This document shows, piece after piece, positions 1-31,653 of a DNA stretch of 64,000 bases; position 1 is the stretch's first letter, and the number at the start of each line of letters is the position of its first letter. The notes below the pieces were generated by a model. That model was not told where the DNA came from. It was given only the letters and a program-made list of their open reading frames with translations, and ran no database searches. Where the stretch lies: the sequence record MH719082.1; one strand, written 5' to 3'. This stretch comes from Escherichia phage vB_EcoM_IME392. The translations under genes and the position numbers were made by a program.

Positions 1-931
1 TCACATCCAGAGTTGATCCTGGTTGGAACTCTCGACCAACATCTTCCATTACGTATTCTAGAATACTGTGATCGCTATTATAACGAGAAGCAGCATCTTC
101 AAGAGTAGCGATGTAATGCTGGAAGTAGGTACGGATCTTATACCAGGAATTAAGTGATCCGAGATCAATCGTAGTTACCGGAGCTTCATTAATGTCGTCA
201 ACATAAGCTCGGATATTACTTACCTGCTTCTTGATGTTCGACACTTCCGGATACCAGTGGAGATCATCCGTCATCACCACATAGTTGCCCATATCTACTT
301 TGAGCATAGTTGCGATGATTTCCTGGATGATCGTGAACTCCACCAGATTAACGTTAGTCAATCCCCAGATTAGATCATTACTACGGTTGAATACCGTGCA
401 GTCCAGACCACCATTACGGTACTTAAACGATAGAGCAATGTTGCAGATCATATCTGCGGTATTGATGCTGCCGATGCTGTTTACCAAACCTACATCAGAA
501 TCACGGCTGGGATCGTGAATAGTAGCCACGCACTTACGGTTACCCAGGTCAGAACGGAGGCGGTCTGTTACAGTCTGGAGTTGATCGTAGTTATACAGAC
601 GCTCACCGTAAGCACCACGCCAGGTAACCATATCATCGCTAAACATCTTAGCGCGAGGAACCATAATCGACATCCAGTTATCGATTGCATAGCCACCAGA
701 CAGTACCCACAATACTTCCCCCATAATTCCGAGGATATTGTCTTTACGTTCTGGATGAGCCATCCAACGATTAATCGGATTACTTAACTCAACTACAGCA
801 TGACCGATGGATACTACCGCCGAAGAGTTAACAGAAGTTCTGGACTTCTGCAACTCACCAGCCTTATCCATAGTATTGATGCTGTTAACCAGGATTTCAG
901 TATTACTGTTACCGCGAATTACCGAGATCAT
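1..931 (-). CDS. Thymidylate synthase-family enzyme (ThyA-like or dNMP hydroxymethylase-like); C-terminal part lies beyond the window edge
   Basis: Absent from the ORF track because no stop falls in the window. ATG at 931-929 overlaps the TGA of the upstream gene (ATGA). Minus-strand translation is open from 931 to position 1 (checked over ~270 nt: MISVIRGNSNTEILVNSINTMDKAGELQKSRTSVNSSAVVSIGHAVVELS...). TS-like blocks read: VTWRGAYGERLY, DPSRDSD, MICN (where ThyA has PCH), LDCTVFNRSNDLIWGLTNVNLVEF (cf. ThyA [22 protein letters not shown]), TDDLHWY (cf. GGDTHLY). Confidence 0.6.
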   Translation of the reverse strand, partial: MISVIRGNSNTEILVNSINTMDKAGELQKSRTSVNSSAVVSIGHAVVELSNPINRWMAHPERKDNILGIMGEVLWVLSGGYAIDNWMSIMVPRAKMFSDDMVTWRGAYGERLYNYDQLQTVTDRLRSDLGNRKCVATIHDPSRDSDVGLVNSIGSINTADMICNIALSFKYRNGGLDCTVFNRSNDLIWGLTNVNLVEFTIIQEIIATMLKVDMGNYVVMTDDLHWYPEVSNIKKQVSNIRAYVDDINEAPVTTIDLGSLNSWYKIRTYFQHYIATLEDAASRYNSDHSILEYVMEDVGREFQPGSTLDV

Positions 932-1650
932 TTAGAGTCCTTACGCACTGAATCAATAGACTTAACTGCAGAGGACAGTAACTCCAGACGGGCCTCCTGA
1001 GGGATCATACCAGATGGCTCATTCAGGATCATAATACCTTTACCAGTATTAGTAAAACGAGCTGTGATTGATCCAGGATACACCGGATGATTCAGAGTTA
1101 CAGAATTACACAACGCAGCACCGAATCGCTCCTCGTAGGCACGCATAGTTACCTTAAGGAGAGTAGAACTGACTGCTACAGAGTATTCCGGATCAACAAC
1201 ACGGAAGTTATTGTCCTCAATACTCTTATCCTTCGTATTGAAGAACAGAGTCATGTTATAATAATCAATAGACTCGTTACTGAGACGTAATGCCTCATCA
1301 CGAGCTTCCTGGCTAGCAAACATACTGTTATGCAGCAGGAAGTAAACGTACGAATCGAATACCGCACGATCACTGACGATCAACTCGCCACGATTGTAGG
1401 CATCCTTGAACATCTGAGTTCGCTGACGAATAAGACGCAGCTGGAACTCTACCGCTTCCATAGGATCTTCCACAGCTAAGCGCAGAATATCCATATGGGA
1501 TGTTACTCCCAGAGGAAGATGGTCACGAGTCTGTACTGCACGGAAGGTACATTCGGTTGATTCTTCCCAGCCTTTAGCCAGAGTAGATTTACCGGTACCC
1601 TGCGCACCAGACATAATTACACTGTAGCCTGGGATACTATAGTCTCTCAT
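928..1650 (-). CDS. P-loop kinase (dNMP kinase-like, or hydroxymethyl-pyrimidine DNA kinase-like)
   Basis: Walker A motif SGAQGTGKST near the N-terminus. Likely true start is the ATG at 1650 (MRDYSIPGYS...) preceded by GGAGAG; the ORF track extends to a TTG at 1662. Stop overlaps the start of the downstream TS-family gene. Confidence 0.5.
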   Translation of the reverse strand: MRDYSIPGYSVIMSGAQGTGKSTLAKGWEESTECTFRAVQTRDHLPLGVTSHMDILRLAVEDPMEAVEFQLRLIRQRTQMFKDAYNRGELIVSDRAVFDSYVYFLLHNSMFASQEARDEALRLSNESIDYYNMTLFFNTKDKSIEDNNFRVVDPEYSVAVSSTLLKVTMRAYEERFGAALCNSVTLNHPVYPGSITARFTNTGKGIMILNEPSGMIPQEARLELLSSAVKSIDSVRKDSK

Positions 1651-1682
1651 TATTCTCTCCAATTAAGAATCTTTCCCACATT

Positions 1683-1713
1683 TTAACAGCCTTTCAAGAC
1701 CCTAAAAGAGCGG
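1683..1713 (-). promoter_or_regulatory. Conserved bipartite intergenic motif, copy 1 (candidate promoter)
   Basis: Plus-strand TTAACAGCCTTTcaagaccctAAAAGAGCGG, about 33 nt upstream of the kinase start at 1650. On the minus strand it reads CCGCTCTTTT-N-AAAGGCTGTTAAAAT (TG-n-TAnnnT-like). Confidence 0.4.
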
Positions 1714-1739
1714 ACTAAAAAGGCTGGTGTAAATGTGAA

Positions 1740-2711
1740 CTAGCTAAACTTATACCAGCGAGGTCTCATACGGATCTCGTGATTCAGTTTATGTAGTTTC
1801 GAGAATTCGCAGAATGAGTTGGTGAACATCTGACGAGTATAGAACCGCTCATCCTCCGGCATGAAGTGGAACCATTTCTCCGGCTCCCATGCATACCCGA
1901 AATGAGCACATATCTCTTTGATGTTCTGATACCACCATTCCACGAACATCTGGTAGCCGCAAGGAGGGTTCTGGTCATTAAGCATGTACCATACCCCATC
2001 CTGCGTCCCGGGTCCACATACGATAGCATCGTTATCTGTGTACGCAGTCTCTTTAGAGTAGGACATAGTTGCCCAGCATTGATATGCCATGAACGGACCT
2101 AATCCAGATACCTGTAACAGATGCTCGATGGCCTCGGTAGCGAACGGAGACTTCCATGCCAGTAAGATAGGATCACTGTAGGTCTTCACCAGATAGGCTC
2201 TGGCAGCTACACTGTACTTAATATCCTCTGGACATACTTCATTAGCCATCTTAACTGCTGTGCTAAGGAAGTAGGCATTTGATTGCTGTGGAGCAGTGAA
2301 CGGAGGACCATCCTCATAACGACGTAGCTCTTCACGACCCATGTTATGTATGTCGTCATAGCTCATCTCATAAAGAGGAAGGACTCTGCGGAAGCGATCC
2401 ATATATGAATCACCACGGTTTATCATCTGGAAGAGTACCACGTTAAGCGCCTTACTCTCCCAGCTTAGGGAATCGTTCTCCAGAATGTTCTTGATAGCCC
2501 ATACTGTTTCACGATCGTGCTTACGGAACACGTTAGTGAATTTAAACTTACTAATCCACTTATGTTCTGTCCACGGAGGAGGTAGCTTAAGTATCTCCTT
2601 CTTATAATAAACCTCAGTCCGCTCGCGGTTATACTCCACATACTCACGTAGCTCCTCGGGATTTATCATCCCGAGTAACCCGTCGAAGTGCAAACCTAAC
2701 GGTTTAGACAT
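1740..2711 (-). CDS. Hypothetical protein, Trp/Cys-rich, in the putative DNA-modification module
   Basis: 323-aa ORF with canonical ATG (2711-2709) overlapping the stop of the upstream gene (TAATG). No motif I can name with confidence. Confidence 0.5.
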   Translation of the reverse strand: MSKPLGLHFDGLLGMINPEELREYVEYNRERTEVYYKKEILKLPPPWTEHKWISKFKFTNVFRKHDRETVWAIKNILENDSLSWESKALNVVLFQMINRGDSYMDRFRRVLPLYEMSYDDIHNMGREELRRYEDGPPFTAPQQSNAYFLSTAVKMANEVCPEDIKYSVAARAYLVKTYSDPILLAWKSPFATEAIEHLLQVSGLGPFMAYQCWATMSYSKETAYTDNDAIVCGPGTQDGVWYMLNDQNPPCGYQMFVEWWYQNIKEICAHFGYAWEPEKWFHFMPEDERFYTRQMFTNSFCEFSKLHKLNHEIRMRPRWYKFS

Positions 2712-3790
2712 TAAAGAATACCTTCTTTGGTAAAGTAGTCTATTACTTCATCCTGAAGTTCTTGTGCGTAATCCTTGCGCAGATATAGATTCTCATACTG
2801 ATGTTTCAGCAGAGCATCACGATCTTTCAGTTTCTCTGCAATCTCCGCATTACTGGAGACGATCAGAGGAGCCAGTAGCTCTTCGGGGACGCCGCTCCGG
2901 ATTATTGTTCCAGCAGCATCTTTATCCACCAGCATCAGAGTACCAGAGCTCAGGTATTCGTAATAACGGTTAGGTGGGCTGGTATAGAACGAATTACTGG
3001 AGTTCCAGTCTTCGATAAGCAGTACCGCTGCATATTTAGCCACTTCATCCAGCATCTCTGACAGCTTAAACTTAGGCAGCCAGTTAATCGGAGCAGCAGG
3101 TCCCAGCCACTTACGTTCTTTAGGATCCAGCTCTTCCCAGTTTTCCTGCTCGTAGCCGTCAAATCCTGCAAGACCACCAGTATGTTTAGCGATGGACATC
3201 TGAGCTTTGTAGCTCGGCACCGACATAAACAGTTCCAGACCATCTTGCTGGGAGAAGTACTGAGTGAACTTATGGAAGCGGCCTTCACGAGCAGCACCGT
3301 AATACAGCAGGCTATTGTCCGGCTTATCTGACGATCCATAGCGAGGCTTACGACCAGGAACGTAGGTAAGACGGTTCCAGTTAATGTGATGATAGTTCTC
3401 TTCGCTAGGAGAATACTGATTACCCCAGGAAGTACGTTCAAATGCTGCTACAACTTTAAATACAGTAGCTGCGGTGATGTGTCTCCACTGCGGACCCTGG
3501 ATACGCATCTTAGACGAGTAATCCTGTCCAATCCAGTAGAACTTAGCTCCGACATCTGCCTGGTCTACCCAGAACTTATACATCTCGTCGCGGAACTTAC
3601 AGAAGGTAGGAACACCATTGATGGCGATAATCACGTCATATTTAGTGCCATCTTCCATAGCCTTAACGAACTTAGGAGTATCGTCCAACAGGTCAGCTTG
3701 AAGTCCGTAGGCTAACCAGGAAGCCAGAGTATTACTGGCAATGATGGATTTATCGCTGCATGGCGAAAAGTTAGTTACTGCAATCTTCAT
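2711..3790 (-). CDS. Glycosyltransferase resembling phage DNA beta-glucosyltransferase (T4 BGT-like, GT-B fold)
   Basis: 359 aa. N-terminus MKIAVTNFS..., YDVIIAINGVPTF, LLYYGAAREGR and AAVLLIEDWNSSNSF...TLMLVD line up with my recollection of T4 beta-glucosyltransferase (MKIAIINMG..., IYGGSFRSGQR, IAALIIGDKNYNDNF...AVMLID). GGAGAAA RBS before ATG 3790. Confidence 0.5.
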   Translation of the reverse strand: MKIAVTNFSPCSDKSIIASNTLASWLAYGLQADLLDDTPKFVKAMEDGTKYDVIIAINGVPTFCKFRDEMYKFWVDQADVGAKFYWIGQDYSSKMRIQGPQWRHITAATVFKVVAAFERTSWGNQYSPSEENYHHINWNRLTYVPGRKPRYGSSDKPDNSLLYYGAAREGRFHKFTQYFSQQDGLELFMSVPSYKAQMSIAKHTGGLAGFDGYEQENWEELDPKERKWLGPAAPINWLPKFKLSEMLDEVAKYAAVLLIEDWNSSNSFYTSPPNRYYEYLSSGTLMLVDKDAAGTIIRSGVPEELLAPLIVSSNAEIAEKLKDRDALLKHQYENLYLRKDYAQELQDEVIDYFTKEGIL

Positions 3791-3817
3791 GTTTAATTTC
3801 TCCGTAGGCTGTCACAA

Positions 3818-3850
3818 TTTAACAGCCTTTTAGCTCATCAAAGAAGCGAG
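3818..3850 (-). promoter_or_regulatory. Conserved bipartite intergenic motif, copy 2
   Basis: TTTAACAGCCTTTTagctcatcAAAGAAGCGAG, about 30 nt upstream of ATG 3790; the stop codon of gene 3838..4872 lies inside the spacer. Confidence 0.4.
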
Positions 3851-4872
3851 TTAGCTGATGCCCAGCTCAGCCAGTTATCGTTGAGATCGGTCAGGTAGGA
3901 GTAATCCTTATTCAGACCGAATACAGTACGGTTAGTTCCGTCGAACTTCATTATACCAGCGCCAGGAGCTCTGATGATTGCATCTTCCGTAGCCAGACAA
4001 TATTCTTTCAAGTATTCCTGGATGTTGGGACGAATACGACGGAAGGAACTATCTGCCGAGTCATAGTGGAACATATCTGCGCAGTGCCACTGTACGTAGG
4101 ATTTATCCGGACGGCTGAGTAGTTCATTACGGGTAACCATATCTTTAGGAGAATATCCCAGCTTAGCTACAGTGACTTCGTGAATACCTCCACCATTAGA
4201 CGAAGTATCCATCAGCCAGTTTTCGTCCCAGTAGAACGAAGTACCAGTACCAGTTACCTGTCCAACCTTCCAGCCCATCGCCATACCTTTAAACAACAGG
4301 TAGCAATCTTCTCCTACGGTCAACTGTTGGAAGGTTATATCGAACAGCCAGAACATCTTCTCACTGGTCTTGACCATGATACCGAGGTCAGTGGCCGGAG
4401 CAGTGTTATTATGTGACTGACGATCGCATAGTTCAACAATCTTGTAGTTACGATTCTTGAAGCTACGGACGAACGCCATCTCAAACTCAGATCCCTCGAA
4501 GTCTATAACGGAACGGTCCAGATGGAAAATATTATCTGCGAACCAGACATCATCATCCACGAAGTAGCAGATGTCTGGACACCAGTTCTGATCCTCCATT
4601 AAAATCCATGCCTTATCAAGAGCATGAGCTCGGATTCTTCCGATTACCGGATTATCGTACTTAGGACGATGCCAGAAATTAAACTGCTCGTCCCCACCGA
4701 ACTGCTCTTCCAGAACTGCCTTATCTTCTTCGGAGGCATCCTGCATAAAGTAGAAGAAACGATACTCGATAGAGTCGTCAGTCTTCTTAGCATCTTTGAA
4801 CGACTGAATCTGACGGAGTACCGACTTCATACGATGATAGGTTGGGATGATAAAAGCCACTTTGGTAGTCAT
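3838..4872 (-). CDS. GT-A-type glycosyltransferase (family-2-like, DxD motif)
   Basis: 344 aa. N-terminal VAFIIPTYHR (cf. GT2 IIPTYNR) and DxD-like YFVDDDVWF. Confidence 0.5.
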   Translation of the reverse strand: MTTKVAFIIPTYHRMKSVLRQIQSFKDAKKTDDSIEYRFFYFMQDASEEDKAVLEEQFGGDEQFNFWHRPKYDNPVIGRIRAHALDKAWILMEDQNWCPDICYFVDDDVWFADNIFHLDRSVIDFEGSEFEMAFVRSFKNRNYKIVELCDRQSHNNTAPATDLGIMVKTSEKMFWLFDITFQQLTVGEDCYLLFKGMAMGWKVGQVTGTGTSFYWDENWLMDTSSNGGGIHEVTVAKLGYSPKDMVTRNELLSRPDKSYVQWHCADMFHYDSADSSFRRIRPNIQEYLKEYCLATEDAIIRAPGAGIMKFDGTNRTVFGLNKDYSYLTDLNDNWLSWASANSLL

Positions 4873-4878
4873 ATTTAT

Positions 4879-5490
4879 TTATCCAATTTGACGAACTAAG
4901 CGAAACCCTTCGGCGTACGGCCACTGGGCAGAATATCCACGTAAGGTGGCTAGAGCTAAGATACTCTGGGTATCTCGGTCTGACTTAATCTGGGAGTCGA
5001 ATCGTCCCATAGCCTGGCACTTACACTCAATATCGTCCTTATTCAGACGCTCGAAGTAATTAGGTTCCATCTGACCGAACTGGGTCAGGGACTCGGCATA
5101 CTCATATTCCAGGATAAGCCAGTTATACGCTCGGAGAGCTACACGAGCAGCATGATTAACTAGTTGATGGTCCTGGTGTAGGCTACTGAACGGAATATAG
5201 ACTACATCCGGCCTGATTTTAGCAACATAGTCCGCAATATCCTTAGCCAATTGCGGAATATCCTTCTGAGTCATACCATCGCCTGTGGAGGCATCGTTAC
5301 GCTCCAGGCAATGTACTTCTTTGATATTCGGATAGACACCGAATGCTGCTTCGGCTTCACCACGACGGGTCTCGTCCGGAGCAGTTACTTCGAGGATGAA
5401 AAATTGGTCGTCGCGGAATTTGCTCATAATACCTCCGCAACCCAGAATCTCATCATCGTGATGTGGGCTGATAATCAATCGTGACTTCAT
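4879..5490 (-). CDS. PIG-L/LmbE-family zinc-dependent de-N-acetylase
   Basis: 203 aa. Signature LIISPHHDDEILGCGG (PIG-L HPDDE motif) and downstream HQDHQ. GAGGA RBS before ATG 5490. Confidence 0.7.
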   Translation of the reverse strand: MKSRLIISPHHDDEILGCGGIMSKFRDDQFFILEVTAPDETRRGEAEAAFGVYPNIKEVHCLERNDASTGDGMTQKDIPQLAKDIADYVAKIRPDVVYIPFSSLHQDHQLVNHAARVALRAYNWLILEYEYAESLTQFGQMEPNYFERLNKDDIECKCQAMGRFDSQIKSDRDTQSILALATLRGYSAQWPYAEGFRLVRQIG

Positions 5491-5505
5491 TATTAATCCT
5501 CGCTA

Positions 5506-5541
5506 CACAAAAATGGGGTTAGGCCGTAGAGACCTAACCCC
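5506..5541 (-). terminator. Rho-independent terminator-like hairpin between the BCCT and deacetylase genes
   Basis: Plus strand caaaaat-GGGGTTAGG-ccgtagaga-CCTAACCCC: 9-bp perfect stem, followed on the minus strand by a TTTTT run. Confidence 0.45.
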
Positions 5542-5555
5542 GTACGCCTCTGACA

Positions 5556-5590
5556 CCTTAACAGCCTTTTAGGTCATCAAACAGGAGGAG
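5556..5590 (-). promoter_or_regulatory. Conserved bipartite intergenic motif, copy 3 (degenerate downstream block, overlaps the BCCT stop codon)
   Basis: CCTTAACAGCCTTTTaggtcatcAAACAGGAGGAG; the second block lies in the last codons of the BCCT gene. Confidence 0.3.
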
Positions 5591-6959
5591 TTTCCTTAGC
5601 CAAGAATACTTTAGGTACAAAGATCTTGAGGAACCCGAATAGAATACACAATACCCCAATCAGTACCGGAACAGCCGATACAGCTACCAGAGTCTTCGTT
5701 ACAGTTACTACGTCACCACCTGCCCAGTTAAGTGCAGCAGCAACTACACCCATGCTTACAATCCAGAATACACGAGTTCTAGGAGCGGTCATGGACTCTA
5801 CCGTAATACCTGCTGAGTCATGACCTGTAATAAAGAACAGAATCACAGACACGAGGGTAATTACTGAGAATATCCATCCGCCTGGGAAATTAGCCAGAAG
5901 CTGGAAGATATCCTGAGCACCATGTTGCAAACCGGCTACACCGAATACGGTAAACCATACGTTACTGATAATGGTAGGGAACAGTACACATCCCAGGATC
6001 AGTTCGCGAATAGTACGGCCGTAAGAGATACGTGCCACAAACGCTCCGACGAATAATGCCCAACCTACCCAGGCTGCATAGTAAGCATAAGGCCAGCTAG
6101 CCAGCCATTGCTTCTCTTCAGCAGTACTGCCAATGTTTACCGACATAGGAATAATCTGGAGCAGATAGCTGCCAGAATAGGTGATGGTCTTCCAGAGGTA
6201 TTCAAAGAATGTACCACTTACAGCAACGAATGCCATAATAGATAGAGCTACGATTACATTATATCTGGATAACCACTTAACCCCACGATCGACACCAGTT
6301 ACGGCACTAAGTACAGTGCCCAGAGTCAGGAGTGCGATAATGGTGTAAGGACCAACATCCACACCAAGGAACTCTTTAAATCCAGAACTGATCGGGCCTA
6401 CTGCGTAGACGAACGACAGGGTTAAGCCTATGATGGTCGAGAAGAGTAAGCTTATCGTATTAAGGTTATTCAGAGTTCGGGACTTGAATAACTGATTAAG
6501 CGGACGGTCTTCACCACGTACATGCAGTAAGTACCCGAATGCCACCCCTACGACTGCATACACAGCCCATGCATTAAGTCCCCAGTCAAAGAAGGTAGTT
6601 ACCATATTCTGACGTTCGGACATACCCTCCTGATGATGGTACATAGGTTCGAGTACGCCATAATAAATCATGGATACACCCATACCGGTACTAAACATCA
6701 TAGAGTAATAGGTAAAGCGATTGTATTTCGGAGTACCTTTACCCAGCTTAATGTTACCATGTTTGCTGAATACAAAGAATGCCAGGAACGCCAGGAAGAT
6801 CAGCGAAGACCAGGTAAATATGAATCCATACTGAGATATAAATACAGACTTACTCCAGTCCATTACAGCACCAAACTGGGTGGGAGCAAACATAATGGCG
6901 AGTACAATACCCACCGTTACCAGCACCGTCCCCCAGGTAACTACCTTTGAATCGGACAT
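5577..6959 (-). CDS. BCCT-family (betaine/carnitine/choline-type) secondary transporter, polytopic membrane protein
   Basis: 460 aa, about 12 hydrophobic segments. Carries the BCCT signature region WPYAYYAAWVGWALFVGAFVARISYGRTIRELILGCVLFPTIISNVWFTVFGVAG (cf. BetP/CaiT W-x-FYWAWW-x-W-x-PF-x-G-x-F-x-ARIS-x-GRTIRE) and FSTGMGVSMIYYGVLEP. GAGGAA RBS before ATG 6959. Confidence 0.8.
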   Translation of the reverse strand: MSDSKVVTWGTVLVTVGIVLAIMFAPTQFGAVMDWSKSVFISQYGFIFTWSSLIFLAFLAFFVFSKHGNIKLGKGTPKYNRFTYYSMMFSTGMGVSMIYYGVLEPMYHHQEGMSERQNMVTTFFDWGLNAWAVYAVVGVAFGYLLHVRGEDRPLNQLFKSRTLNNLNTISLLFSTIIGLTLSFVYAVGPISSGFKEFLGVDVGPYTIIALLTLGTVLSAVTGVDRGVKWLSRYNVIVALSIMAFVAVSGTFFEYLWKTITYSGSYLLQIIPMSVNIGSTAEEKQWLASWPYAYYAAWVGWALFVGAFVARISYGRTIRELILGCVLFPTIISNVWFTVFGVAGLQHGAQDIFQLLANFPGGWIFSVITLVSVILFFITGHDSAGITVESMTAPRTRVFWIVSMGVVAAALNWAGGDVVTVTKTLVAVSAVPVLIGVLCILFGFLKIFVPKVFLAKETPPV

Positions 6960-6962
6960 TGA

Positions 6963-7871
6963 TTATTCCTCAATTACGCCCTTAGCGATTAACTGGCGAC
7001 GGACGTATGCGTAGCCAGCAGGTGAAGTAGCGAGGACGATGTCCGCACTACGGAAGTTGGTTTCGATATAGAAGCACTCCTGAAGATCCCGAGTACAGAA
7101 GAGCTCAGTACTCATCATACCCTCGCGTACGTTACATGCATCTGCAACGAATTGCGCAACATCTTCGAAGTGGTCTACCGAATGACTATAGCCGAATCCA
7201 CGGGCATCAGTAGATATAACGTAGTTAGGGCAGTACGGAGTGAAGTCAGTATCTTCGTAGGATTTACCCTGGATAGTGAAGATATCTGCATAGTCCTTGA
7301 ACCCGCTCGGGCTAACCAGAAGATCCCAGGCAACTACCATACCATCGATAACATCTGCCTGAAGTACCAGAGAGGTAGTATATTCGTCCGGTGCCTTATC
7401 GCAGACCAAAATTGGGGAGTCTCCCAGAAGGTCCGACATAGTGCCCGCACCCTTGCCCCCGTGAACACGATCACGGCGTACAAACGCCTCCTGAGGCCTC
7501 TGGTACAGTCTGAACGACGGTACAATCAGCGAATCAGGCAGAGTTCCCAGGTTAGCTTCGGAGCGAAGGCAGGATAATTGGTCAGCTTTAGACCACGTAC
7601 TTTCGATAGCGTGCAGATCGTTACCGATTTTGGTATAGATATAGCTTTCCGGATTACGGCACTTACCCTGATTCAACTCTTCGATAACCGAGTCGAAATA
7701 AGGAAGTCGTACTGATCCCTCACGAGGAGCAGTTAACGCTACTGAGCCATGCTTGGTATGATCCTGATCAACTACCATAACCTGGTCCAGACTTACACCC
7801 ATCTTAAGAATCTGGGATAATGTAGCTGCCGTGTGATTAGTGCAGCCAATCATCAAATCTAACTTCTTCAT
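6963..7871 (-). CDS. Hypothetical protein (possible ligase/transferase; weak ATP-grasp-like E-x-N motif)
   Basis: 302 aa; contains HGGKGAGT and YIETNFRS. Assignment is tentative. GAGGAA RBS before ATG 7871. Confidence 0.4.
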   Translation of the reverse strand: MKKLDLMIGCTNHTAATLSQILKMGVSLDQVMVVDQDHTKHGSVALTAPREGSVRLPYFDSVIEELNQGKCRNPESYIYTKIGNDLHAIESTWSKADQLSCLRSEANLGTLPDSLIVPSFRLYQRPQEAFVRRDRVHGGKGAGTMSDLLGDSPILVCDKAPDEYTTSLVLQADVIDGMVVAWDLLVSPSGFKDYADIFTIQGKSYEDTDFTPYCPNYVISTDARGFGYSHSVDHFEDVAQFVADACNVREGMMSTELFCTRDLQECFYIETNFRSADIVLATSPAGYAYVRRQLIAKGVIEE

Positions 7872-7897
7872 TTTAATTCCTCAGTTAACTTGTACAA

Positions 7898-7928
7898 CCT
7901 AACAGCCTTTCGAACCCTAAAAAGAGCG
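7898..7928 (-). promoter_or_regulatory. Conserved bipartite intergenic motif, copy 4
   Basis: CCTAACAGCCTTTcgaaccctAAAAAGAGCG, about 30 nt upstream of ATG 7871. Confidence 0.4.
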
Positions 7929-7942
7929 AAATAATAGATATC

Positions 7943-7964
7943 TAGCCATCTCGTAAGATGGCTA
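7943..7964 (-). terminator. Hairpin directly downstream of the methyltransferase gene (possible terminator)
   Basis: TAGCCATCT-cgta-AGATGGCTA, 9-bp perfect stem; flanked by T/A-rich sequence but no clean U-run. Confidence 0.3.
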
Positions 7965-7972
7965 TGTATATA

Positions 7973-8713
7973 TTACTTTAATTCGGAGAGATCTGCGATC
8001 TTCACCTTAGCTGATACATCCCAGATTCCTTCACCAAATCCGGTATCTTCCAGCAGCTTAGGCACTTCACGTTTCTGTACCTTAGATTGCTCGTACTTAA
8101 GCAGAGGAATATTACCGGTCTTATCTGATTGATCCCACAGATAAGTAGCAGCACCGATGTTATCGAACAGTGCGAGATCTGGATTAAACTGGGTAAGGAG
8201 TCGGCAGTCCCAGTGAGACTTATGTTCCTCGAAAGGATTAGTTTCCGTGCCACGCTGACGATACTCATAGTTAGGAGTACCGATCACGATTTTAGCCTTA
8301 GACTGGAATAGCTTAGACAACACCATAAGCCCGTCTTCGCTATCCAGATGCTCCAACACATCCAGCCAGATAATAGTGCCGAATTTATCCAGCTCTTCAA
8401 TAGGAAGATCTTTCAACAGTTCAACGATATTGCAGATATAGATATCGCTATATACATTTACACTGCCTTTGATGTAGTCTTCGCAGATGTCCAGACCTGT
8501 AATCTGACCATCGAATCCTGCGTTACGGAGAGCAAGACCAATTTCTCCACGACCTAATCCCATATCCAGGATTGGCCCGGAGATAATTTCGTTACGGAGC
8601 ATCCATTGGAGAAAGTGCTTCTGGACTAAGTAGGAGGTGCCTCCGTTGCCCAGTGAAGCCTTCGTGACCTTAGTACCAGGAACGAAATTACACTCGATAT
8701 GTTTACCAAACAT
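7973..8713 (-). CDS. Class I SAM-dependent methyltransferase
   Basis: 246 aa. Motif I ILDMGLGRGEIG, acidic post-I ITGLDI, motif IIWLDVLEHL. GAGGA RBS before ATG 8713. Confidence 0.6.
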   Translation of the reverse strand: MFGKHIECNFVPGTKVTKASLGNGGTSYLVQKHFLQWMLRNEIISGPILDMGLGRGEIGLALRNAGFDGQITGLDICEDYIKGSVNVYSDIYICNIVELLKDLPIEELDKFGTIIWLDVLEHLDSEDGLMVLSKLFQSKAKIVIGTPNYEYRQRGTETNPFEEHKSHWDCRLLTQFNPDLALFDNIGAATYLWDQSDKTGNIPLLKYEQSKVQKREVPKLLEDTGFGEGIWDVSAKVKIADLSELK

Positions 8714-8737
8714 GTTCTGTCCTCATTAGTTTCGACA

Positions 8738-8770
8738 CCTTAACAGCCTTTGGAGCCGTAAAAGAAGTGG
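8738..8770 (-). promoter_or_regulatory. Conserved bipartite intergenic motif, copy 5
   Basis: CCTTAACAGCCTTTggagccgtAAAAGAAGTGG, lying between the terminator hairpin (8784-8811) and the RBS of gene 7973..8713. Confidence 0.45.
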
Positions 8771-8783
8771 TATTGTACATATT

Positions 8784-8811
8784 CAAAAATTAGGGTGGCC
8801 GAAGCCACCCT
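8784..8811 (-). terminator. Rho-independent terminator after the topoisomerase II medium-subunit gene
   Basis: AGGGTGGC-cgaa-GCCACCCT (8-bp GC-rich stem; UUCG loop on the minus transcript), immediately followed on the minus strand by TTTTT. Confidence 0.6.
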
Positions 8812-8817
8812 AGTTAG

Positions 8818-12053: not shown

Positions 12054-12087
12054 AATTTCTCCGGTCAGGTTTAAATAAGCTCACACA

Positions 12088-12120
12088 GTTTAACAGCCTT
12101 TGGAGGCCTCAAAGGAGCGG
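12088..12120 (-). promoter_or_regulatory. Conserved bipartite intergenic motif, copy 6
   Basis: GTTTAACAGCCTTTggaggcctcAAAGGAGCGG, about 37 nt upstream of the topoisomerase large-subunit start. Confidence 0.4.
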
Positions 12121-12752
12121 TTCACGAACAGGACTAAATCCTCTACTCTGGACTTATCTACCCACTCTGTTCTTCCTGGTAAGGACCTATTAGACTCGGA
12201 GAAGAAAGATAATCTCACTTTTGATTCTAAATCCACTCCCTCTTCTTTAGGCATCTCGATTAAGATTAGCGGGGTCATACCGATGCCTAATCCATCTAAT
12301 CTTCTTTCTATATTTGAAGTAATCCCATATTTAGCATTTCCAGATTGGTCCAATACGATATAAAAGACCACCTTACCTTCTGGAATGGTAGATATCGCTA
12401 GGTTCTTAATCACAGAGTTAGCGTATTCAGGATTCAACCATCGTTTATGATTTGAAGAGGATATCACTTTAGACATCTTCTTCTGGTAGTTCTCATCTTC
12501 CCACATTTTAATGTTGCGATTAGTCATGGAAACAGACCTAGCCCTGGTGGCGCATTCTGATCTTCCACATGTAGGACGATAGCCCTTAATCACGGATTTA
12601 AAGGAGCAGGGTTTTCCACATGAACATATTTTTACAGGAAAGAATTTTAAGTAATATTCATGCGGAGTTAAGCCATGAGATTTGGCATGGGAGGGAAATG
12701 CCTGGCCTCTTACTTCGGCAGAGCATATTCTACATTTATGATTCATAATCAT
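12090..12752 (-). CDS. Zinc-finger protein with GIY-YIG/T5orf172-like C-terminal segment (possible homing-endonuclease-like gene)
   Basis: 220 aa. N-terminal Cys/His cluster (CRICSAEV...H...H, KICSCGKPCSF, TCGRSEC); C-terminal VVFYIVLDQSGNAKYGITSNIERRL resembles GIY-YIG-type motifs. Locally AT-rich compared with flanking genes. Note the ORF's 3' end overlaps motif copy 6. Confidence 0.35.
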   Translation of the reverse strand: MIMNHKCRICSAEVRGQAFPSHAKSHGLTPHEYYLKFFPVKICSCGKPCSFKSVIKGYRPTCGRSECATRARSVSMTNRNIKMWEDENYQKKMSKVISSSNHKRWLNPEYANSVIKNLAISTIPEGKVVFYIVLDQSGNAKYGITSNIERRLDGLGIGMTPLILIEMPKEEGVDLESKVRLSFFSESNRSLPGRTEWVDKSRVEDLVLFVNRSFEASKGC

Positions 12753-12990: not shown

Positions 12991-13301
12991 GCTTCACCTA
13001 CCATTTTCAGGAAGGTGTCTACCATAATCGGGTCGAAGCTATCGACATCGGCAGTATGCATCAGGGCGGAGAATAATGAGTTAGCCCAGTGCTCCGTAAC
13101 TCCGTCTTTACCTTCGAGAATTACGCAGTACTGATCTTTGGAAGGATGGTACTGAATCTTAGCAACATTGCGATTCGAGGTCAGGACCAAAATCTTGGTT
13201 CCCGAGATAGTGAAGATTCTAGACATATAATAATCCCAAATTAGAAGATCCGCAGCGGGAACGCCCCGCCACCCAAAAGAACGGGCTTTAGGAGGTCCCA
13301 T
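12987..13301 (-). CDS. Hypothetical small protein (start uncertain; internal ATG at 13226 possible)
   Basis: 104-aa ORF; the upstream ATG lacks a clear SD and an internal Met (MSRIFTISG) is an alternative start. Confidence 0.4.
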   Translation of the reverse strand: MGPPKARSFGWRGVPAADLLIWDYYMSRIFTISGTKILVLTSNRNVAKIQYHPSKDQYCVILEGKDGVTEHWANSLFSALMHTADVDSFDPIMVDTFLKMVGEA

Positions 13302-13343
13302 AAATCGTTTTATTTTTCATTATTTGAAAAATAAAATAATCTA

Positions 13344-18056: not shown

Positions 18057-18115
18057 CTTTGTGATCTCTATTTAAACAATGTTTCAACAATCATAATCAG
18101 AGTTGCCCTCTGACA

Positions 18116-18148
18116 CCTTAACAGCCTTTCGACCCTCCAAAAGAGCGG
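18116..18148 (-). promoter_or_regulatory. Conserved bipartite intergenic motif, copy 7
   Basis: CCTTAACAGCCTTTcgaccctccAAAAGAGCGG, about 60 nt upstream of ATG 18056. Confidence 0.4.
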
Positions 18149-18152
18149 CGGA

Positions 18153-27521: not shown

Positions 27522-28064
27522 TTAGACGCTCGCCTCAGGCACTTTAACAGCCTTTGGACGTGTAAAAAGAGCGGGATTATACCATTCTGGGGTACGATAG
27601 AAAGAGATCTTACGACCCTCTTTCTTCCAGAAGTAGAATTTATCGTTGAGGTAGTTACGGTACTTCTCGTAGACTGTCTCACCAGGAGCACCTGATACAC
27701 ATGCATACGGAGTCATATCGGTCTCTGGACCTACTACCAGATTTTTAGGTAGTGCCACAAGACGGGATAAAATTTCTTCGGTTGCATGGAGCCGTCCGGT
27801 ACGTTCAAAGAATAGCATGCATAAATAGCTTGCCAAGTCACGAACGAAGTTGTAGTTACCTGACGATTCACGAACCCACTTAGCACACGGATGATTAACA
27901 TGCGTCTGCTTATAAATACCCTCGATAGCGTTTTCGCCATCCAGAACATGATGAGCAGTAGATAATAACTGAGCACACTCAATAATCATTTTATTCTGGT
28001 GCATAGGCATACAGTGGTCCATAGCACATTCTAACGCATCTTCGTGAGTACGGAAAATATTCAC
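27522..28064 (-). CDS. Hypothetical protein (His/Cys-containing; function unknown)
   Basis: 180-aa ORF with a GTG start per the ORF track and GGAGTA RBS. The last 17 codons (...TRPKAVKVPEASV) are encoded by motif copy 13. Confidence 0.5.
   Translation of the reverse strand: MNIFRTHEDALECAMDHCMPMHQNKMIIECAQLLSTAHHVLDGENAIEGIYKQTHVNHPCAKWVRESSGNYNFVRDLASYLCMLFFERTGRLHATEEILSRLVALPKNLVVGPETDMTPYACVSGAPGETVYEKYRNYLNDKFYFWKKEGRKISFYRTPEWYNPALFTRPKAVKVPEASV
27542..27574 (-). promoter_or_regulatory. Conserved bipartite intergenic motif, copy 13 (embedded in the 3' end of CDS 27522..28064)
   Basis: CTTTAACAGCCTTTggacgtgtAAAAAGAGCGG. Confidence 0.35.
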
Positions 28065-28146
28065 AATAATTACTCCTAACGTGGTTGCTTACTTTAAGTC
28101 TCTCGTGAAAGATTTAGAGTAAGCATCGGAGGAATTACCTCCGACA

Positions 28147-28179
28147 CTTTAACAGCCTTTCGACGGCACAAAAGAGCGG
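28147..28179 (-). promoter_or_regulatory. Conserved bipartite intergenic motif, copy 14
   Basis: CTTTAACAGCCTTTcgacggcacAAAAGAGCGG, followed on the minus strand by the hairpin TCGGAGG-taatt-CCTCCGA, then the RBS and start of gene 27522..28064. Confidence 0.4.
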
Positions 28180-28181
28180 TT

Positions 28182-28343
28182 TTAAATTTTACATGCATCT
28201 CCGCAGTCGTCGTCACCAGGCTGGCTGATAACTTCGTCTACGTTAACCATGCGATCTTCTACACGACGAGATGCCTCGTCTAATTCTTCCTGAGATGGGA
28301 GATTGGAGAAATCCAATTCTTCACCAGATTTATTGCCTGACAT
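28182..28343 (-). CDS. Small highly acidic protein (candidate DNA-mimic-type anti-restriction factor; speculative)
   Basis: ORF track 28182..28388; ATG at 28343 preceded by GGAG gives a 53-aa product MSGNKSGEELDFSNLPSQEELDEASRRVEDRMVNVDEVISQPGDDDCGDACKI with about 15 Asp/Glu against 5 Lys/Arg. Confidence 0.35.
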   Translation of the reverse strand: MSGNKSGEELDFSNLPSQEELDEASRRVEDRMVNVDEVISQPGDDDCGDACKI

Positions 28344-29153: not shown

Positions 29154-29171
29154 ATTTGATTCCTCCAACAA

Positions 29172-29203
29172 GTTAACAGCCTTTCGACCGTACAAAAGAG
29201 CGG
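29172..29203 (-). promoter_or_regulatory. Conserved bipartite intergenic motif, copy 15
   Basis: GTTAACAGCCTTTcgaccgtacAAAAGAGCGG, directly upstream of the GGAGGA RBS of gene 28812..29153; this is the last copy before the strand switch. Confidence 0.45.
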
Positions 29204-29349
29204 TTTTTACTCAAAAAGACTCTTAAAATTATGTTTTCGAGCTTTACAGGACGCCCCTGCGGTCTAAAGATAGGCCTCAAAAGGGTGTTTTTGTGAAGGT
29301 TGTCCGAGGCCCGTCCGTGACGTCTTCAATTATAAACAGGAGAAATACA

Positions 29350-29823
29350 ATGGGCGAGTTAGCTAAGCAAAACTTAAGTACTATTCAAAAGGGTCTTTCC
29401 TTAGTTAATTCGGAGGGCTCTGAATCCGTAAACGTTAAAGCCCTACAAGGTAAAGAAATAGGCTTACAGATTCTTCAGTTAGGTCTGGCAGAATCCGAGG
29501 CTAACCGAGTAGCAAAGCTTAACGGGATTATAGAGATCCTGGAAAAGAAAATATTCGATCCTGAGCGATTAGATAGACTTACCGAGAAGGAGCAGATCGA
29601 GAGATATCAGCTGGCCTTAGCTAGCGCATCTCAATCGGCAGCATTCGTTAAATCGACCATCGGCTCGATTAACTGGACAGCTATCGAAGTTTCTCTCTTA
29701 AGTCTGGCATCCGCCATTGAGACAGCCAACGAAGGTCAGTCTCCTAAGGATCGTAAAGACATGTCTACTATTGCCAATAACTTGATTAAGCAGTTGGCAG
29801 AAGGCATTGGTCCTAAGGGGTAA
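29350..29823 (+). CDS. Putative terminase small subunit
   Basis: 157-aa product (ATG 29350, RBS AGGAGAAAT), immediately upstream of the large terminase with a 3-nt gap; first gene of the plus-strand late block. Assigned by position and size only. Confidence 0.35.
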   Translation: MGELAKQNLSTIQKGLSLVNSEGSESVNVKALQGKEIGLQILQLGLAESEANRVAKLNGIIEILEKKIFDPERLDRLTEKEQIERYQLALASASQSAAFVKSTIGSINWTAIEVSLLSLASAIETANEGQSPKDRKDMSTIANNLIKQLAEGIGPKG

Positions 29824-29826
29824 GCC

Positions 29827-31653
29827 ATGGCTGATGCATTAGATGAGTTTATTGAAGCATGTGGCTCTAGACTCGAAGCTATGCATCAGTTAGCATTGAT
29901 GAGTGGCTACGAGGAGCGGGTTCCAACGATCCAAGAGTTCGTAATGGATCCATACTACCTGGGTAAGTCCTTGGTAGATGCTGATGGTGTCTGCTCGGTC
30001 TATCCTATTTGGATGGATGCTCTGGCTAAGATTTATCCTACTCCGTACACTTCACCAGCCGTAGAGATTTATCTCACTGGTGGTATCGGTCTTGGTAAGT
30101 CTACTGCTGCTAAGATTATCACTCTCTATGACTTGTGCAAATTGCTATGTCTTAGAGATCCTCGTGCACATTTTAAACTTCTGCCATCCACAGTAATTCG
30201 CTGGATGCTGATGAACGCCACTAAAGGTCTGTCCTACGATGTACTCTATGCAGAGATCATCGAGTGGATAGAGAATAGCCCATTCTTCAAAGGTAAGATG
30301 ACTGGTGGTAAGAATCCTCGTACTCTGTTCATTAAGAACGTAGACTTAGGATTCGGTTCTCGTGGTCAAGATGCTCTGGGTCAGGCTACCGTAGGTGCCA
30401 TCTTCTCAGAGATAAACGACATGACCGTAGTTCACGGTCAAGCAGAAGATAACTTTGATACCATCTATACTCGTATGAACTCTCGTTTCGGGGGTAAAGG
30501 GGTAGAGATGATTGGCCACTTGATTCTGGACTCTTCGAATAAGGGAAACCGTTCCTTTATCGATGTTCGTCTAGAGGATAAGGCCAAGAAAGGAATTCAC
30601 GACTATCTGTTATTCAGATACGCTCACTGGGAAGCTAAATGGCACCTCGGCGGGTATTCTGGGGAAATGTTCTACGTCTATGCTGGTGACCAGTATCGAG
30701 ATCCGTTTATCTTCGATGAGAATACTCTCAAGATTAAAGACGGTCTGGAGCCATCTCGTATTATCTCTGTACCTGTTGAACATAGACAGGAATTCGAGAC
30801 TAACATTGTTAAGTCTCTTAGGGATCTTGCAGGTGTGTCCACATTCGGTACATGGTCGTTCATCTCGTCCTACGAGGTGCTTAACCGAGCTGCTGATCAC
30901 ATTAACCCTACTGAATCTAACGTGGTGGTTCTGGACTTCTTCGATAAGGAGCAGACTCTTCACCAGACTATAGATATTCCTAGACTTGCCTTCCTTAATA
31001 AGAAGGATAGGTTCATCCATATTGACTTGGGTCTTAAGAACGACTCAACTGGTATAGCCTGTTCCTATCTCGATGGTTATGTTGACCAAGAGACTTACGA
31101 TCCTCTAACCAGTACGCGCATGGTTACTCGTGAACCTAAGATCGTTACTGAGTGGGCGTTAGAAATTACCTGCCAGCCTGGTCAGGAAGTTCCTATCTAC
31201 AAGATTAAGAACTTCTTAATAGAAGCATCTCAGCAGGGTTACCCAATTAAAATGGTAACCACCGATGGATACCAATCCACTAACTTACGTCAGGATTTAA
31301 CTCTGGCTGGGTTCGAGACTGCTCTGCTATCTGTTGACCGGACTAAAGATCCATATAACTACTTAAGGAACTCGATTCTCGAAGGTCGCAGCACTATTCC
31401 AGCTGTACCTAAGTTGATCAAAGAACTTAAGGAGCTAGAGGAAGGCGAAGGTAAATTCGACCATCCACCAGATGGCTCTAAGGATATCGCGGATGCCGTA
31501 TGTGGATCCCAATGGTCTGTTAAGGAGAATATCCATAAGATCGGGTCTACTGCTACGGTTGAAGATCTTCAAGTTGCACTCCACGAACTTAATAAGTCTA
31601 GGGATGCGAAGGAGATGTTTCGGAACATTATTAAGCAACGAGTGGGTGGCTAA
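29827..31653 (+). CDS. Terminase large subunit (ATPase plus nuclease)
   Basis: 608 aa. Walker A YLTGGIGLGKST near the N-terminus; size and position match gp17-type large terminases. Confidence 0.8.
   Translation: MADALDEFIEACGSRLEAMHQLALMSGYEERVPTIQEFVMDPYYLGKSLVDADGVCSVYPIWMDALAKIYPTPYTSPAVEIYLTGGIGLGKSTAAKIITLYDLCKLLCLRDPRAHFKLLPSTVIRWMLMNATKGLSYDVLYAEIIEWIENSPFFKGKMTGGKNPRTLFIKNVDLGFGSRGQDALGQATVGAIFSEINDMTVVHGQAEDNFDTIYTRMNSRFGGKGVEMIGHLILDSSNKGNRSFIDVRLEDKAKKGIHDYLLFRYAHWEAKWHLGGYSGEMFYVYAGDQYRDPFIFDENTLKIKDGLEPSRIISVPVEHRQEFETNIVKSLRDLAGVSTFGTWSFISSYEVLNRAADHINPTESNVVVLDFFDKEQTLHQTIDIPRLAFLNKKDRFIHIDLGLKNDSTGIACSYLDGYVDQETYDPLTSTRMVTREPKIVTEWALEITCQPGQEVPIYKIKNFLIEASQQGYPIKMVTTDGYQSTNLRQDLTLAGFETALLSVDRTKDPYNYLRNSILEGRSTIPAVPKLIKELKELEEGEGKFDHPPDGSKDIADAVCGSQWSVKENIHKIGSTATVEDLQVALHELNKSRDAKEMFRNIIKQRVGG

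Follow-up and report, generated by a model that had tools for sequence, protein, structure and literature searches.

In the map of the T7 genome by Dunn and Studier, several of the 23-bp promoters of T7 RNA polymerase reportedly lie in the 3' ends of upstream genes. We describe here an arrangement which, by analogy, is of this same kind, that of multi-copy promoters set in the 3' ends of preceding genes of compact phages: a motif of about 45 bp recurs along the non-structural arm of Escherichia phage vB_EcoM_IME392 (sequence record MH719082.1), of which a stretch of 64,000 nucleotides (nt), hereafter the window, was analyzed. The motif is very probably a promoter, the transcription-start signal of this arm, and its overlap with gene ends a by-product of genome compaction. 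Positions in the motif are numbered with the T of TTAAnnT as -7, and each copy is tabulated at -44..+1 (Table 1).

Like the T7 promoters, the motif is present as many near-identical, co-oriented copies at the gene boundaries of a compact genome, some of which overlap the end of the preceding gene. It differs in that its sequence is unrelated and bipartite, with a spacer of 9-10 nt and a length of about 45 bp, whereas the T7 promoter spans 23 bp with an initiating GGGA. In the gp39-dependent promoters of Thermus phage P23-45, a phage-specific box takes the place of the -35 element (PMC3950348). As is the case with these and with the T4 middle (MotA box) promoters, the motif has no -35 hexamer and carries a phage-specific block upstream; unlike in T4, this block is CCGCTCTTTT at -40..-31 and not a MotA box, (a/t)(a/t)TGCTT(t/c)A centred at about -30. 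The jumbo phages phiKZ and AR9 have early promoters made of AT-rich elements of about 10 nt and a second polymerase packaged in the virion (PMC7598289). Shared with them are a sequence-detectable motif before non-structural operons, encoded beta'-like proteins and late genes without an obvious motif; the differences are a core with 5/12 (42%) G+C and a single beta' set that is close to bacterial beta' rather than jumbo-phage-like.

The motif also resembles the extended -10 promoters of sigma70 (TGnTATAAT): TG at -15/-14, T-12, A-11 and T-7 are conserved while -9/-8 are free. Unlike in sigma70 promoters, AAAGGC at -21..-16 is invariant, and it has no sigma70 counterpart. An AR9-type late promoter (AACA-N6-TA) was rejected: the AACA lies on the opposite strand, an orientation antisense to all of the genes, and the TA lacks conservation. 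By-eye comparison with the sigma54, sigma28, sigma32 and sigmaE consensus sequences gave no fit. The motif string was not found in the searchable literature in a phage context, and literature on promoters of IME392, EP_H11 or YerA41 yielded nothing helpful. The motif consensus is previously undescribed, and its overlap with gene ends is ordinary.

A recurrent 45-bp motif in the non-structural arm

The minus strand of the window from 1 to 29200 encodes replication, nucleotide metabolism and a thymidine-hypermodification cluster, and the structural genes lie on the plus strand from 29293. The unclassified Escherichia phage EP_H11 (111 kb) matches the window at 93-95% identity with the same gene order, and both phages appear in published lists of phages with predicted T-modified DNA. 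Relatives beyond EP_H11 came from Logan assemblies reached via protein look-ups, the sole useful source: L013 and L014 encode a 344-amino-acid protein of the window at 62% identity and its BCCT transporter at 87-89%, and L011 encodes its Pyr_excise-like protein at 86%. The identity of BCCT to L013 (89%), set against the 62% of the adjoining 344-amino-acid protein, indicates that BCCT is under strong purifying selection. Exact-pattern scans for the motif in IMG/VR and in the JGI metagenomes returned single matches at chance level. Protein-seeded scans of IMG/VR returned zero matches for the 344-amino-acid protein and for beta', and a topoisomerase-seeded scan found distant matches only (about 33% identical).

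The plus-strand string TTAACAGCCTTT occurs in the window in 14 exact copies and one with a single mismatch (7899), all of them plus-strand and within 1683-29184; the motif is therefore co-oriented with the minus-strand genes. At two mismatches or fewer there are 25 occurrences against a chance expectation of 4.7, and 25 was reached in 0 of 100 shuffles. A weight-matrix scan of the window returned 15 matches, which score 45-65 bits and all lie on the gene (minus) strand, with no match at 12-44 bits; the scan of the whole EP_H11 genome found 24 copies, and the scores of both sequences are empty between 12 and 35 bits. Every copy in both lies on the gene strand of the non-structural arm, with none in the structural arm and none in gene bodies.

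On the gene strand the motif consists of AA (-44/-43), two arbitrary bases, CCGCTCTTTT, a variable spacer, the near-invariant core AAAGGCTGTTAA (-21..-10), two free bases, TGT (T-7, G-6, T-5) and a conserved A/G. This A/G lies 6-7 nt past T-7, is A in 35/40 copies, and is probably where transcription starts; E. coli sigma70 holoenzyme starts 6-8 nt after the hexamer. Across 40 distinct copies, TG at -15/-14, T-12 and A-11 are each found in all 40, although these fall within the string used to select the copies, and A-10 and T-7 are each found in 38. The TG is kept in 9/9 copies from L013 and L014. Conservation drops to 0.85 and 0.35 bits at -9/-8, which are nearly free. The pattern TG-n-T-A-A-n-n-T, with its collapse at -9/-8, is the signature of a sigma70-family extended -10 element: the TG stands one base upstream of the hexamer, -11 and -7 are held and the inner positions are loose.

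Two EP_H11 copies carry point mutations in the core, TTAC at record position 11303 (the homologue of window copy 2) and TTGA, with A-11 changed to G, at 99298 (the homologue of copy 11). Should the -10 reading hold, they would be natural down-mutants.

Placement and conservation together make a promoter the most likely identity of the motif. Start codons or tRNA genes lie 12-76 nt past the predicted start, with Shine-Dalgarno sequences or 5' hairpins between, and the tRNA region is headed by two copies. Copies 4 and 5 come after intrinsic terminators, and copy 15, upstream of which there is no gene, opens the arm. In L013, the motif occupies all intergenic gaps longer than 45 nt except one, which holds a terminator only. 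Classical two-hexamer sigma70 promoters occur in the arm at chance frequency (24 against 24.7 expected, and 30 against 29.1), so something else must start transcription there.

Six homologous copies could be compared with L013. The core is 0.99 identical, positions -7..-5 are 0.89, the upstream block 0.70, -9/-8 0.50 and the spacer 0.43, while synonymous third bases are 0.51-0.52 identical. A core that is 99% identical where synonymous sites are at about 50% points to selection acting on the DNA.

Gene ends that run into the motif

Five upstream open reading frames (ORFs), all on the minus strand, end inside or just past a copy: 3838..4872, 5577..6959, 12090..12752, 23346..23696 and 27522..28064. 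A first-pass annotation of the window had listed three overlaps of motif copies with coding 3' ends and stop codons, which are exactly as it stated, and two more were found. Its copies 3 and 13 are those at 5558 and 27544, and the segment 5556-5590 to which it attached the remark corresponds to about -42 to -8 of copy 3. It had placed the stops of 3838..4872 and 5577..6959 in the motif, and both are indeed TGA at -31..-29. The first of these ORFs encodes the 344-amino-acid protein, of unknown function, and ends ...TCG CTT CTT TGA TGA, so that the protein closes with ANSLL in copy 2; its L013 homologue closes with ANSLF-TGA in the same motif. The second, the BCCT gene, ends ...ACT CCT CCT GTT TGA, with the TGA at 5577-5579, and its terminal codons, CCTCCTGTT, are the upstream block of the motif. 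ORF 27522..28064 reads the whole of copy 13 (NPALFTRPKAVKV...), which encodes its final 17 residues as annotated, and stops 11 nt past the predicted start site. ORF 12090..12752 (220 amino acids) takes its stop from the TAA in the invariant core (TGTTAA) of copy 6, its last 10 residues, NRSFEASKGC, being motif-encoded, and ORF 23346..23696 has its stop in the upstream block of copy 8.

Most upstream genes have a TAA at -51..-41 and thus stop at the 5' edge of the motif, which explains much of the AA at -44/-43. The non-coding copies, 10/15 in the window and 18/24 in EP_H11, are conserved as well as the coding ones. Overlapped copies are not significantly weaker matches by position weight matrix score (p = 0.11 and 0.25), which leaves the idea that coding overlap weakens the motif unsupported. 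The five overlapping genes enter in differing frames. TGA occupies -31..-29 in 16/45 copies, irrespective of a gene end at that place, and copies of the L013 lineage have it as their consensus (TTTGATA); one frame is shut by the core TAA in 44/45 copies, and a stop triplet lies at -33..-25 in 33/45. Stop triplets are built into the motif, a TGA, TAA or TAG directly past the T-run and a TAA in the core, and an entering ORF is therefore either closed within a few codons or passes through in the single frame that most copies leave open. This corrects the earlier picture: the motif supplies the stop codons, rather than being laid over them. The further remark that copy 3 has a degenerate block which encodes the last BCCT codons stands only in part. 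Just two bases of the block are rare, and it is a recurrent variant, CCGCCTGTTTGA, which is also found at a non-coding copy (L013:15033). This variant is present at copy 3 in EP_H11, L013 and L014, and a window-specific G-to-T change in it is a synonymous Pro change.

Two overlaps differ between the window and EP_H11. Copy 6 (window 12090, EP_H11 3033) yields NRSFEASKGC* in the window gene, whereas another gene of EP_H11 reads it as PEPLL*. The window carries there an insertion of about 640 bp, absent from EP_H11, with the 220-amino-acid ORF, which has no stop of its own; in EP_H11, where the motif is base-identical, an 87-amino-acid ORF reads PEPLL and stops at the TGA at -31..-29. ORF 23346..23696 meets copy 8 solely via a 1-nt indel, and its EP_H11 version (68 amino acids) ends 110 nt earlier.

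The insertion that carries ORF 12090..12752 lies exactly at the 5' edge of the motif copy and replaces the end of the upstream ORF of 84/87 amino acids. The ORF has a weak PHROG 8130 match, and by eye its C-terminal half is possibly GIY-YIG/T5orf172-like. It may be a mobile endonuclease gene.

The tails of the remaining proteins can be set against their families. The product of ORF 27522..28064 is Pyr_excise-like (relatives of PF03013, PHROG 624). Its homologues have 150-170 amino acids and end 0-10 residues past a conserved P-x-W, which marks the 17-residue tail as lineage-specific. The motif adds a further 17-19 residues here, the tail NPALFTRPKAVKVPEASV lying beyond P-x-W, and the PHROG 624 alignment runs no further than residue 169 of 180. 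When the window, EP_H11, L011 and L012 are compared, the constant residues of the tail are those from conserved motif bases only. In BCCT, the Pfam domain ends at amino acid 446 of 460; the C-termini of distant BCCT proteins differ in length and show no sequence relationship, and the terminal PPV is confined to this phage lineage. The BCCT of the distant relative L021 (42% identical) has no motif, a different C-terminus and direct overlap with neighbouring genes. The DNA of the motif is conserved whatever the frame, and the codons that it shares with genes fall beyond the conserved domains, as is expected where a gene overlaps a regulatory element. Judged from these comparisons, the coding tails are incidental: by-products of DNA selected for transcription, not functional peptides.

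The first-pass annotation had offered two readings, that the motif constrains C-terminal sequence or that the C-terminal extensions are incidental read-through, and had suggested comparing homologous proteins. Both prove to be two sides of one arrangement in which the DNA motif is the conserved object: the lineage's tails are motif-encoded, and distant BCCT and Pyr_excise-like homologues lack them. Relatives whose proteins are as little as 62% identical carry the motif at corresponding positions, and within the lineage the conserved C-terminal residues all come from conserved motif bases.

The gene-end overlap is ordinary genome compaction, and its weight is practical rather than conceptual. 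In five proteins the final 3-17 residues come from the probable promoter and should not be annotated as functional C-termini or taken as conserved-peptide evidence, and engineering of these gene ends would hit the promoter. The motif is the more useful result. Its copies, 15 in the window and 24 in EP_H11, give a transcription-unit map for a group of E. coli myoviruses that has hardly been studied, whose DNA is predicted to be thymidine-hypermodified and which encode a beta' of their own, and provide a defined 45-bp sequence with which to ask which polymerase transcribes hypermodified DNA.

What reads the motif

In the mechanism that we propose, the genome is packed so tightly that most upstream genes would stop at the 5' edge of the motif and a minority would run in, their last codons being whatever the motif encodes in the entering frame. 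TGnTAAnnT would be recognized in the manner of sigma70, and CCGyTCTTTTG and AAAGGC would be read by a phage factor or an altered polymerase. This division of labour, with sigma70-family-type recognition of the extended -10 and another reader for the remaining blocks, is the least certain step, and we give it an even chance of being right.

Several observations weigh against the promoter interpretation or its sigma70 form. There is no sigma70 -35 element: TTGACA is absent at 16-18 bp upstream of the -10, the motif copies do not appear in the two-hexamer scans, and CTTTTG stands at the -35 position. The invariant AAAGGC and CCGC are not sigma70 preferences, and at about 45 bits the motif is far above what a host promoter needs. 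A strong terminator-like hairpin comes no more than about 10 nt after the predicted start of copy 3, which is an odd place for a promoter. ANSL(L/F) and PPV are kept in homologues that are 62-89% identical, and protein-level selection may act on these few codons on top of the DNA constraint. Finally, the phages have their own beta' and a second motif that contains the CCGyTCTTTTG block, which makes the pairing of polymerases with motifs uncertain.

The hairpin after copy 3 is kept in L013 (9330..9360), where an A-to-G change preserves pairing as G-U. The unusual order of promoter then terminator suggests attenuation of the downstream genes.

The beta' genes lie in EP_H11 outside the part matching the window. 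Beta' is of the bacterial type and divided over two genes, at record positions 29676..31244 and 26582..28096 (L001 3890..5455 and 7038..8549). The N half matches E. coli RpoC (E 4e-51) and contains the catalytic motif NMDVDGD. At the positions of E. coli beta' R275, E295 and A302, which we take to be sigma-binding clamp-helix contacts, the EP_H11 protein has H, A and V. The Rpb1 domain 1 and domain 2 families each have one matching protein. Searches by Pfam, PHROGs, PDB sequence and signature motif yielded no phage beta subunit, and the AlphaFold model (predicted local distance difference test score, pLDDT, 72) of a 483-amino-acid protein at the head of an operon near the beta' genes has no PDB fold match. 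No second (virion) polymerase set was found, and the structural-arm proteins show no RNA polymerase domains. No Pfam family of sigma, MotA or AsiA was among the 25 of 36 family matches listed for 44 small proteins of at least 100 amino acids, and no T7-type single-subunit RNA polymerase was among the strongest Pfam matches of 104 EP_H11 proteins. A copy of the first motif heads the operon that contains the beta' genes.

The second motif lies on the gene strand, in the window at 13255..13340 (-) with its core AAGCCCGTTCTTTTGGGTGG at 13269..13288, and in EP_H11 at record positions 2262, 25018, 25374, 28842, 33057 and 36555. It consists of TTTTTCAAATAAACGA, about 20 nt, and tAAAGCCCGTTCTTTTGGGTGGGGCG with a GC-rich hairpin, and is intergenic, after terminators and 50-60 nt before start codons. 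Its CCGTTCTTTTG is one base off the upstream block of the first motif, the two sharing CCGyTCTTTTG. Three copies stand in or beside the beta' cluster, and the motif is found immediately before the beta' genes themselves. It has no Rfam match.

These genes bear on the strongest competitor of sigma70-type recognition, in which a phage-specific enzyme, the split beta' with a phage initiation factor, reads the motif instead of host sigma70, and the extended -10 likeness reflects shared base-flipping logic or chance; the gene-end overlap would still be incidental. We regard this as a real possibility, though the less probable one. Near-invariant, co-oriented copies of about 45 bits across replication and metabolism genes are what T7-type promoters look like, the two-gene catalytic beta' of EP_H11 has H, A and V at the presumed sigma contacts, the motif relies on several T positions in DNA predicted to be thymidine-hypermodified, and the second motif class directly upstream of the beta' genes could be a host-read early class. 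Against it stand the failure of the searches above to find a virion polymerase set, a beta, or a sigma, MotA or AsiA homologue, and the fact that the first promoter of the arm and that of the beta' operon are both copies of the first motif, which would require the enzyme to be injected or expressed from different promoters; TG-n-TA-nnn-T, moreover, is free exactly at -9/-8, as sigma70-family recognition predicts. A more specific version makes the motif the promoter of a hybrid machine, in which the split phage beta', with altered sigma-binding helices and no detectable phage beta, possibly joins host beta and alpha and is guided by CCGyTCTTTTG and AAAGGC on thymidine-hypermodified DNA, with the overlaps again a by-product; this we consider unlikely.

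Readings that dispense with a promoter fare worse. A signal acting in RNA, for processing, stability or termination at the 3' ends of upstream messages, would suit the placement at junctions, the several upstream ORFs that reach into the motif, and the pairing of the core with a downstream inverted copy in some copies (with a T-run after EP_H11 32906). Six copies fold differently, however, with z-scores of -2.3 to +0.1 that are for the most part non-significant and above -1.5; copies 4 and 5, past terminators, and copy 15, without an upstream unit, would often go untranscribed; no Rfam family matches; and conservation tracks the logic of a -10 element, not base pairing. We hold such a signal to be very unlikely, and an RNA-structure or intrinsic-terminator element was rejected on the lack of a common fold and of an Rfam match. 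Little more probability attaches to a protein-binding DNA site with another role (operator, hypermodification target or boundary, replication or packaging signal) than to the RNA signal, if any. Its length, near-invariance and two conserved blocks with a variable spacer, the imperfect inverted repeat GC(T)CTTT ... AAAGGC that the blocks form, and the CCGyTCTTTTG common to the second motif, suggesting a common binding protein, would all be at home in such a site, but replication, packaging or modification sites would not be expected to follow the orientation of the genes strictly or to keep a fixed, short spacing from start codons, no copy lies in the structural arm, and an operator still implies a promoter at the same place. 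Selection of the C-terminal peptides themselves, which would keep the nucleotides similar through the protein, is the least credible of all. It could draw on the retention of PPV* (BCCT, 89%), ANSL(L/F)* (344-amino-acid protein, 62%) and PALFT..PKAVKV (in the 86% identical relative), yet most copies are equally conserved without coding, the five genes use differing frames, with copy 6 translated in two frames by distinct genes of the two phages, the tails lie beyond the family domains and are absent in distant homologues, and the L021 BCCT, without the motif, has a different C-terminus.

The pairing of the motif core with an inverted copy a few bases downstream is seen at window 3809..3830, at L013 11037 and 6956, and at EP_H11 32906..32960, where it takes the form AGGCTGTTAA-N17-TTAACAGCCT, then ATTTTTATTT. 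Such a hairpin would end read-through transcripts, while motif-started transcripts, lacking the 5' arm, would escape.

Motif copies and neighbouring genes

Table 1 Positions of the motif copies and of an associated hairpin in the window (ORF, open reading frame).
Feature	Coordinates	Strand	Remarks
Copy 1	1673..1717	-	upstream of P-loop kinase gene
Copy 2	3809..3853	-	TGATGA at -31..-26 ends ORF 3838..4872
Copy 3	5548..5592	-	copy marked in the first-pass annotation; upstream block CCTCCTGTTTGA encodes the last BCCT residues (PPV) and stop
Hairpin with T-run, intrinsic-terminator-like	5515..5541	-	just downstream of copy 3, between BCCT and PIG-L-like genes
Copy 4	7889..7933	-	core TTAG; preceded by hairpin 7943..7964; heads 302-amino-acid gene and BCCT
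Copy 5	8730..8774	-	preceded by terminator 8791..8812
Copy 6	12080..12124	-	upstream of topoisomerase II B-like gene; core TAA is the stop of ORF 12090..12752
Copy 7	18108..18152	-	stop TAG of upstream gene at -47..-45
Copy 8	23315..23359	-	ORF 23346..23696 stops at -33..-31
Copy 9	24301..24345	-	
Copy 10	25766..25810	-	heads stretch without ORFs
Copy 11	27293..27337	-	upstream of tRNA-Arg and tRNA-Met
Copy 12	27476..27520	-	tandem partner of copy 13, 58 bp downstream; absent from EP_H11, present in L011 and L012
Copy 13	27534..27578	-	wholly within last 17 codons of ORF 27522..28064
Copy 14	28139..28183	-	stop TAA of upstream 68-amino-acid ORF adjoins at -45..-43
Copy 15	29163..29207	-	first element of minus-strand arm, at divergent junction with structural genes; no upstream gene on the strand

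Copies 12 and 13 (27476..27578) arise from a 58-bp tandem duplication, which L011 and L012 share and EP_H11 does not. Spacer sequences look swapped between motif copies, which suggests recombination or gene conversion among them.

The BCCT gene is enclosed by the thymidine-hypermodification cluster (928..8713), which also contains a P-loop kinase, an HMUDK_hel/aGPT-Pplase-like protein, a PIG-L-like deacetylase and unknowns. L013 and L014 have differing extra genes in this cluster, one of them PS-decarboxylase-like. L021 (Logan SRR34064821, 15.2 kb) is a distant AT-rich relative (31% G+C) with a cluster of BCCT, PIG-L, gyrB-like and thymidylate synthase genes. Its topoisomerase IV A-like gene has an intein with an HNH domain, and it carries several tRNA genes and lacks the first motif.

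In the structural arm, the tailspike (59505..62492) has a complete endosialidase architecture (End_N_terminal, End_beta_propel, End_beta_barrel, End_tail_spike and Peptidase_S74), which suggests K1-capsule specificity. In the non-structural arm, the 2.4 kb at 25140..27520 contain no ORF longer than 80 amino acids, tRNA genes for Met (26105..26180) and Arg (26650..26725), and four motif copies; this stretch may encode further non-coding RNAs.

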